This document shows, one piece after another, positions 1 to 40,739 of a DNA stretch of 64,000 bases; position 1 is the first letter of the stretch, and every line of letters begins with the position of its first letter. The notes beneath the pieces are model-generated. The model did not search any database and was not told the DNA's origin. It worked only from the letters and a program-made list of their open reading frames with translations. The stretch comes from Escherichia phage EK010. The position numbers and the translations under genes were made by a program. The stretch is taken from the sequence record NC_070981.1; one strand, given 5' to 3'.

Positions 1-30
1 TAAGGATTGATATTAGACATGCATTATTTA

Positions 31-523
31 CCCATGTATATCTAACCAGTATTCTCCCACCCGTATTTCTCTTACTCATGTTAAGGAAGGATGAAAGGCT
101 AGCACTGTACAGGCATACTAATAGAAGACTATAACTAACCGGTATTAATAGTAAGAACATTAATGATAACCTATGTAAACTATACTGTTGCTAACACTTC
201 CCCACGTTTGAATGTAATAACTTATGTGATTATTTATGAGTGGATTATTGATGTATGTATGTTTAGACTGGTTATTGTTTACTTTAGTGATTATGTTAAT
301 TCTTTCTTTTAATCTTTTTCTTTTTCAGAGATTCTTTTTTCTTTTGATGAGTAGATTTTTGACTGGTAATTTATTACCGCATGGTCTGACCTGTTACCTG
401 TAACTAACTTACATTATATCCCACCCGTTTCCCCTTCCTCGTTAGGCTTCTTACCCATTGGCTAACCTATGCGGCACGTCTTACCCATCTATCTATCCCG
501 TTGGTCTGCTACCCGTTCTATTA
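31..523. repeat. Direct-repeat motifs in ORF-free left end (TTACCCAT x3, CCCACCCGT x2) flanking a T/C-rich tract
   Basis: Motif copies read at ~31-63 and ~419-500; pyrimidine run ~301-350; no ORF >=60 aa in 1-700. Confidence 0.5.
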
Positions 524-633
524 GTGTTATAAAGTAACATTCTGTCAGTAAGCTGTACCTCTGAGTAAGAAAGTTTAGTAAATTAAACTCCTTTTAGATT
601 CAATGAGTTATGAAATAGTTTGAAAATAAGTGG

Positions 634-661
634 TTGACATGTTTTTCCTTTAATATATAGT
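634..661 (+). promoter_or_regulatory. sigma70-type promoter (TTGACA -35, TATAGT-like -10) with upstream A-rich tract
   Basis: TTGACA at ~634-639, -10 ~656-661, 40 nt before ATG 702. Confidence 0.55.
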
Positions 662-701
662 TGCGACTGTAGTTTGTAGTTCACATCAACCGAAAGGATT
701 A

Positions 702-1571
702 ATGAAAATGTCAAAGTTAGCAATTAAATACTTGAATCAAGCAAATGATGTACTTTCTCCGTTAGGTCTTTCCGTTGGTGTGCCTTCTCAATGGATGGAT
801 AACCAGCAAGCTCGTACCAGCTTTAAAAACTCTGTCATTCTGGCTTGTCTTATCATAGATTCCGCTGCGAACGCCTTACAGTGTGAAGATGAGCAGTCAA
901 TGAAAGAGAATGGTTTTACAGATATGCAAGATGCTATCAACTGTTACATTCAGGCTAATTTAGATAGTTGGACTCAGAATGATTGGCCTGAATCTTGCCG
1001 CGATGTTAACGCAGTATTATCCCGCTTGTCTGCTATGGTTGAAGCTATTCAGAACAAGAAGAAGAAAGATAGTAAGCCTTCTATTGCAAGTAAGATTATG
1101 AAGTCTGTCAACCTTGCAAGTTATGCACTGGTTGCAGCTATCGGTGTTAGTGCTATCGCTACCAATGTGCAGGCAAAAGACTCTCTTTCTACAGGTCTGC
1201 AATCCTTTGTTAGCACGTTTAAGAATGCTCCTGATATGGCTTGCCGTGACGTTGGCAGTGATGGTAATGATTCATTTTGGAAGGTGCATTTTAACTCTGT
1301 AACCGTAAAAGATGTGCGTGTCACTCTTACCCCGTTAGGTGAGAAATCAGGCGTTCAGTCGGTCATTAATTTGAAACGTGCTGACAGTGATCACGACATG
1401 GTGACTTATTCTCTATATCAGAAGATTGAGAAAGAGAAATTACAGTTTGTAACTAATCTCGTTAGCTATGGTGATGTTAGTGAAACTGTACTCGCTACCA
1501 CTGCTTATAATGACGGTGTAGCAGTTTATACAACCTTTATTAACTTTGCTAATTGTGAGGCTATTCAGTGA
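702..1571 (+). CDS. hypothetical protein (289 aa)
   Basis: Track ORF; ATG start after promoter; no recognisable motif. Confidence 0.7.
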   Translation: MKMSKLAIKYLNQANDVLSPLGLSVGVPSQWMDNQQARTSFKNSVILACLIIDSAANALQCEDEQSMKENGFTDMQDAINCYIQANLDSWTQNDWPESCRDVNAVLSRLSAMVEAIQNKKKKDSKPSIASKIMKSVNLASYALVAAIGVSAIATNVQAKDSLSTGLQSFVSTFKNAPDMACRDVGSDGNDSFWKVHFNSVTVKDVRVTLTPLGEKSGVQSVINLKRADSDHDMVTYSLYQKIEKEKLQFVTNLVSYGDVSETVLATTAYNDGVAVYTTFINFANCEAIQ

Positions 1572-33954: not shown

Positions 33955-33963
33955 TAATGTATA
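33955..33963 (+). promoter_or_regulatory. TAATGTATA motif, candidate phage-sigma promoter element
   Basis: Exact 9-mer 33 nt upstream of ATG 33996. Confidence 0.4.
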
Positions 33964-40730: not shown

Positions 40731-40739
40731 TATACATTA
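40731..40739 (-). promoter_or_regulatory. TAATGTATA motif on minus strand
   Basis: Plus-strand TATACATTA; orientation opposite to neighbouring genes. Confidence 0.25.

Follow-up and report, generated by a model that had tools for sequence, protein, structure and literature searches.

Bacteriophage T7 has a 160-bp terminal repeat that contains three copies of the motif CCTAAAG, with eight more copies at positions 175-340, between the repeat and the phiOL/A1 promoters. Further copies are found before the right repeat, none lies on the other strand, and the copies follow one another with a period of 13 bp. The T7 early promoters A1-A3 are located downstream of the left terminal repeat arrays. 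The arrays were reportedly named SRL and SRR by Dunn and Studier in 1983; to our knowledge they have no established function, and a literature search on work about them found nothing. Repeated elements near a cut, in which orientation matters, are also known from the R sites of lambda cosB and from pacL and pacR, which flank pacC in SPP1. In these two phages, as is generally known, tens to hundreds of base pairs separate the short elements from the cleavage site, which in SPP1 they flank on either side.

Short direct terminal repeats (DTRs) have been described for several phiEco32-like phages. The ends of phiEco32 were mapped experimentally (PMC4281155; PMC9965538), and its 193-bp repeat is exact at both ends of the record. 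The reads of SU10 show a sharp drop at the repeat ends (PMC4281155), and whole-genome nanopore reads of YF01 gave repeats of 193 bp (PMC9965538). The homologous last gene of SU10 has one sigma-70 promoter in front of it, like that of phiEco32 (PMC4281155). For SU7, no phage RNA polymerase gene has been reported (PMC8399022).

The DNA analysed here, a stretch of 64 kb referred to as the window, is collinear with the genome of Escherichia phage E20-1 (Kuravirus, Gordonclarkvirinae), and corresponds to the reverse strand of that record from position 77850 on. The two sequences are nearly identical, with six differences in the first 4600 bases (at 3-5, 2250, 2573 and 2589). Parts of the region have matches in about 70 public phiEco32-like genomes. 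Twenty relatives were compared, in three clades named after the window, phiEco32 and EP335, which together cover the genera Kuravirus, Suseptimavirus and Nieuwekanaalvirus. A search of IMG/VR with the first early protein returned no relatives, a search with the conserved promoter pattern matched phiEco32 and one other contig only, and an exact search with the first 36 bases of the window gave no match. Bases 1-700 very probably represent the early-gene end of a Kuravirus genome, comprising the inner part of the DTR, a non-coding leader and a sigma-70 promoter, in a phage that packages its DNA from concatemers in the manner of T7.

The assignment of the repeat relies on alignment to relatives. 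The last base of the phiEco32 repeat aligns with position 100 of the window. The SU10 repeat (193 bp) and the annotated repeats of YF01 (193 bp) and 4E8 (206 bp) stop at the same alignment column, and NC-B carries an exact repeat of 250 bp at both ends with the same boundaries. The records of Paul and IME267 have their last base at the 100/101 column, while that of SU7 has its first base there. Comparison with the genome ends of related phages, which the preliminary description had proposed as a check, thus finds the boundary at 100/101 in eight relatives. Bases 1-100 are homologous to an experimentally mapped repeat with matching boundary positions and form the inner 100 bp of a DTR, as judged from the phiEco32 and NC-B repeats. 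Since the phiEco32-type boundary is homologous to 100/101, the window begins within the repeat, and its edge is, by this alignment, an arbitrary cut rather than a genome end. The earlier proposal that the 700-bp left end is a candidate terminus, packaging or origin element is therefore partly supported as regards the terminus: only bases 1-100 belong to the DTR, by homology, and bases 101-700 consist of the leader and the sigma-70 promoter, which the preliminary description had not noted.

The inner boundary (91-113, ATGAAAGGCT/AGCACTGTACAGG, the stroke marking the boundary between bases 100 and 101) falls at the centre of GCT/AGC. Its sequence context, GAAAGGCT/AGCACTG, is conserved, and the flanking bases are kept in distant relatives. 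The outer boundary reads GGACCT/AGCC, so that CT/AGC is common to both boundaries. The conservation of the inner boundary predicts a terminase cut at 100/101. E20-1 and nine close relatives (SU7, PAS59, Bas86-88, MLP3, BS3, TH43 and TH34) have 249 bp between the two conserved boundaries, which implies a full DTR of about 249 bp in the source phage. With 100 bp of this repeat inside the window, the physical end should be located about 149 bp to the left of base 1. As the window has one genome end and the E20-1 record one copy of the repeat, we infer the repeat of the source phage from its relatives.

The 193-bp DTRs of phiEco32, SU10, YF01 and Paul are homologous in sequence to the repeat of the window clade, with both boundaries at identical alignment columns. 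The outer core GCGCGTTTCCTAAAAAGGGGGAGTCCTCATTTAAAAAAGGG is conserved among the phiEco32-like DTRs and common with the window clade. These DTRs are placed between the late genes and the rightmost early operon, as in the source phage. The difference lies in the length, which is about 249-250 bp in the window clade versus 193 bp, with extra middle sequence that includes additional copies of the motif described below.

Several public records are cut within the repeat or annotate it inconsistently. In PAS59, the annotated end repeat of 275 bp, from window position 34 to about 300, is off the family boundary. The SU7 record ends at window position 48 and the UKE3 record at 45. The repeat given for SU7, just 53 bp at the right end of its record, corresponds to window 48-100 and has the same inner boundary; its own authors advise caution. 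The NC-B annotation lists 250 bp on the left and 194 bp on the right despite 250 identical bp, and the records of E20-1 and of the BASEL phages contain a single repeat copy each. That of E20-1 was opened inside this single copy, with the repeat unannotated.

At the other side of the leader, a sigma-70 early promoter, TTGACA-16 nt-TATAGT, is located at 634-661 on the plus strand. It matches the consensus at 11 of 12 positions, its spacer is within the 16-18 nt range, and it precedes by 47 nt the start codon (708) of a gene with the same orientation. All 20 relatives carry TTGACA-N16-TATAGT, the block from about -100 to +25 is almost invariant among them, and the SU7 and 4E8 records annotate a promoter at this element. 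Judged by these hexamers, this would be the promoter at which host RNA polymerase starts the first early operon, and transcription would begin near 665-669, given the usual distance from the -10 hexamer to the start. The first early gene (708-1571, plus strand, 287 aa) is preceded by the ribosome-binding site AAAGGA at 693-698 and belongs to PHROG 36409, which is labelled as of unknown function; its protein has no significant match in Pfam. An ATG at 702 is out of frame in relatives. The operon extends over 708-2517, and downstream of it, at 2537-2557, lies a terminator-like hairpin with a T run. In the ORF-poor spacer after 2557 (to about 3500), four TTGACA-type sigma-70 promoter-like sites are found at 2767, 2971, 3303 and 3470, in agreement with SU10 and phiEco32, where the spacer separating genes 120 and 121 is described as having three promoters (PMC4281155). 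Since the early genes and their promoter lie about 0.8 kb from the predicted physical end, this end is probably the one that enters the cell first; by analogy with T7, it would also be packaged last.

The protein encoded at 2161-2517 on the plus strand, a small early protein, has a signal-peptide-like N-terminus (MKIKLAVCAALFAVSSVSHA). It matches PHROG 13168, labelled 'terminase', at 1e-42 and shows a weak Pfam match to T4 Spackle (E 0.026). In Bas89, a small gene of the corresponding early operon is also labelled terminase. A DNA-binding or terminase protein was sought in the first operon; the sole 'terminase' label was the one on the 2161-2517 protein, which looks misannotated given its signal-peptide-like N-terminus. 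A periplasmic role, for example in superinfection exclusion, is possible for this protein. On the scale of the window, the cumulative GC skew goes up to about 46 kb and then down. The peak may correspond to the switch from rightward early and middle genes to leftward late genes, in line with the published convergent layout of the family. Cumulative skew was rejected as an indicator of an origin, as it tracks gene orientation and is uninformative on replication.

Between the repeat and the promoter, bases 101-633 form a leader that we consider non-coding, as its ORFs are not conserved. It begins with a variable spacer next to the repeat boundary (101-200), with indels even between close relatives, followed by a non-coding block at 201-260 (CCCACGTTTGAATGTAATAAC ... 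ATGAGTGGATTATTGATGTATGTAT) that is kept in distant relatives. The T/C-rich run reported earlier at about 301-350 corresponds to a pyrimidine tract at 296-348 on the plus strand, which is the most T-rich part of the window. It holds the top T-rich 45-mer of the 64 kb (69% T), is the sole stretch with at least 65% T, and contains a core, CTTTTTCTTTTTCAG, that is kept across genera. A second conserved block at 355-385 (TTTGACTGGTAATTTATTACCGCATGG) contains the palindrome GGTAATTTATTACC at 365-378, and another palindrome, TGTTATAAAGTAACA at 525-539, is kept across genera; both were read from the sequence. The latter is a possible site for a dimeric protein. The A/T-rich region upstream of the promoter (560-633, plus strand) is highly conserved among relatives and is possibly an UP-element or activator region.

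Searching the region against Rfam gave nothing above one chance-level match. RNA folding of 400-640 yielded z-scores of +1.0 and -0.15 for the two strands, with no structure signal, and folding gave no hairpin at the repeat boundary. Intrinsic terminators were searched for in 1-1000 and none was found. The phage sigma factor gp36 uses the promoter element tAATGTATAtA (PMC4281155). Within the block at 233-260, TGATGTATGTA (249-259) fits this element at 9 of 11 positions; the phiEco32 counterpart fits worse, and a promoter of this middle/late type was rejected here. Exact gp36 elements (TAATGTATA) occur in the window at 33955 (+), 40731 (-), 40802 (+) and 50937 (-). Three of these four extend to TAATGTATATA, and the pair at 40731 and 40802 is divergent.

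The DTR and the early promoter being already established in the family, the only undescribed element of this region is an array of CCC(G/A)T copies on one strand. The three and two repeat copies noted in the preliminary description are confirmed: TTACCCAT is found at 28, 451 and 481, and CCCACCCGT at 56 and 420, all on the plus strand. Their core, ACCC[AG]T, is present six times on the plus strand of bases 1-700 and is absent from the minus strand. The two related modules into which the repeats had been grouped are likewise real and conserved, and they constitute two of three clusters of one strand-polar family across the junction. The first cluster, part of which is inside the window, occupies 26-79 on the plus strand, within the DTR, with ACCCAT at 30-35, ACCCGT at 59-64 and a degenerate ACTCAT at 74-79. 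In E20-1, two more copies lie just to the left of the window start, and the copies of this cluster are at equal positions in all relatives whose record includes the repeat. The second cluster (419-516, plus strand) lies in the leader and comprises ACCCGT at 423-428, ACCCAT at 453-458 and 483-488, TCCCGT at 496-501 and ACCCGT at 511-516, with spacings of 30, 30, 13 and 15 bp. Its right-hand part, GTTGGTCTGCTACCCGT (500-516), is invariant across a six-genome alignment. Compared by eye, the motif shows no convincing match to the DnaA box or the Chi site.

For the comparison with relatives, the motif was counted as the core CCC[AG]T with a pyrimidine-rich 5' flank (YACCC(G/A)T) in the junction sequence of each record. 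Every one of the 20 relatives has 4-11 copies on the plus strand and 0-1 on the minus strand, and the plus-strand number rises to 8-11 wherever the record includes the terminal repeat. The spacing is regular, since 125 of 127 distances between copies are within 12-16 or 27-32 bp, with a unit of about 14.5 bp. The motifs are therefore kept in relatives, and the absence of conservation that was to refute the earlier proposal is not observed. The relatives also reveal a third cluster, on the late-gene side and outside the window, 130-480 bp beyond the outer repeat boundary. In 14 relatives it contains 2-7 copies on the plus strand and none on the minus strand, and 4-7 copies in genomes with at least 350 nt of flank; its coordinates are 286-520 in the E20-1 record and 457-589 in NC-B, and in a further set of relatives it is found about 200-460 bp to the left of the outer boundary. 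Copies of the third cluster often have the longer form ACCC(A/G)T(A/T)AAGGC and partially overlap the first small annotated genes. Altogether, the array consists of three clusters over about 1.4 kb: on the late-gene side, inside the repeat, and between the repeat and the early promoter.

The motif variant differs between clades. The window clade mostly has CCCAT, the phiEco32 and EP335 clades mostly CCCGT, and the change occurs in step across the clusters. Such a change, which counts as roughly one evolutionary event, would fit, weakly, with one co-evolving factor that recognises all clusters. At positions 3-5, the window has AGG where E20-1 and every aligned relative have CCC (CTACCCAT to CTAAGGAT). 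The AGG costs one motif copy at the very edge of the window and may be a genuine variant or an end artefact of the source record.

The architecture of the array closely parallels that of T7. Both T7 and the source phage have a short direct terminal repeat and a motif of 5-8 bp on one strand, regularly spaced, inside the repeat and on both sides of it, with the late-side cluster known here from relatives only. In both, an array separates the repeat from the first strong sigma-70 early promoter, within the initial 0.5-0.8 kb of the genome. The motifs themselves share no sequence homology (CCC(G/A)T with a pyrimidine-rich 5' flank versus CCTAAAG), and the spacing is 13 bp or multiples of it in T7 versus about 14.5 or 29 bp here. 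In addition, the T7 array is denser and abuts the repeat, whereas here 200-420 bp separate the flanking clusters from the boundaries. Packaging in T7 is coupled to the phage's own RNA polymerase, an enzyme that these phages lack. The repeated elements of lambda and SPP1 resemble the present ones in being short and close to a cleavage site, here a predicted one, but those phages use cos or pac (headful) packaging instead of short direct terminal repeats, and their elements have no similar sequence.

We favour, with a probability of about one in three (0.35), the reading that the CCC(G/A)T copies are binding or pausing signals for the terminase, or for an accessory protein, that recognises and cuts the concatemer junction. 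This reading is preferred because the arrays bracket the repeat on both sides and enter it, because their strict polarity suits a translocating or oriented machine, and because the first cluster lies 36-114 bp from the cut that would make the end nearest to the terminase and late genes. The terminase genes themselves are located outside the window. Somewhat more tentatively, strand-polar CCC(G/A)T arrays could serve as signals to find, orient and cut the junction, and thereby be the functional counterpart of the T7 arrays.

Other explanations of the repeats and of the region around them were weighed against this one. That the repeats are a by-product of chance or base composition can practically be dismissed. 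The motifs are indeed short and the plus strand is locally C-rich, but the six core copies compare with an expectation of 0.27 derived from the rest of the window, and with a mean of 0.40 in dinucleotide-preserving shuffles, none of 2000 of which reaches six. The group at 423-511 is moreover the sole cluster of at least three closely spaced copies in the 64 kb, and the position, strand and spacing of the copies recur over three genera while the flanks diverge. It is also very improbable that the region encodes small proteins, namely the 49-aa ORF of E20-1 and a 55-aa ORF at 236-403, in which case the T/C tract would be Phe/Leu-rich coding sequence. E20-1 annotates ORF120 (49 aa) at window positions 163-312, BS3 annotates three small ORFs in this region, and the 55-aa ORF translates to a hydrophobic peptide. 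However, the latter has no recognisable ribosome-binding site and is shortened to 12-16 codons in 12 of the 20 relatives, and to 12-13 codons in most of the close ones, with variable frame and sequence beyond. The substitutions compared between phiEco32 and the window show no concentration at third codon positions. On the minus strand, a stop-free stretch of 63 codons at 2-190, open at the left edge of the window, becomes an ORF of 69 aa in E20-1, and the length of this ORF over the repeat boundary is anywhere between 0 and 91 aa in relatives. For want of conservation, the minus-strand boundary ORF was rejected as a gene, as were those at 163-312 and 236-403. As stated in the preliminary description, bases 1-700 are free of complete ORFs of at least 60 aa; the 55-aa ORF is the largest, and the 63-codon stretch runs off the edge.

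The main rival to junction processing is a replication origin formed by the arrays and the AT-rich stretch between them, which we consider unlikely. In detail, and with equally low probability, the repeats would be iterons for an initiator, the segment of 27-32% GC with its T tract would be an unwinding element, and the strong promoter might activate the origin. The layout resembles that of iteron origins such as lambda ori and those of plasmids, in which regular direct repeats adjoin an AT-rich segment: here the direct repeats flank 101-418, which has 27-32% GC and includes the T-rich 45-mer, and the strong promoter adjoins. In T7, a secondary origin is located close to the left end, at the phiOL promoter. 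Typical iterons measure 17-22 bp, however, much longer than the 5-8 bp of the motif core. The copies here are divided among three clusters, one of them within the terminal repeat and one on its far side, a distribution more in keeping with a junction signal than with a single origin, and no initiator protein was identified. Less probable still is that the second cluster is an operator array, through which a phage or host regulator would act on the early promoter. This cluster lies at -123 to -211 from the -35 hexamer in all 20 relatives and within a highly conserved block, but the constant distance may only mirror the absence of indels in that block. Its sites are far upstream of the promoter core, and further copies of the motif occur within the terminal repeat and on the late-gene side of it. 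Furthermore, early shut-off in phiEco32 proceeds via an RNA-polymerase-binding protein, with no operator (PMC4281155, citing Pavlova 2012).

The significance of the region depends on which reading is correct. If the array is a packaging or junction signal, it would be a tractable starting point for studying end recognition in phages with short terminal repeats. The role of the T7 arrays could then also be tested in a second, independent system, one that is not complicated by a phage RNA polymerase. If it is not, the region is a genome end of an ordinary and already understood kind. If the junction-processing reading is true, the array could help in designing vectors for transduction or packaging in these phages, themselves candidates for therapy.
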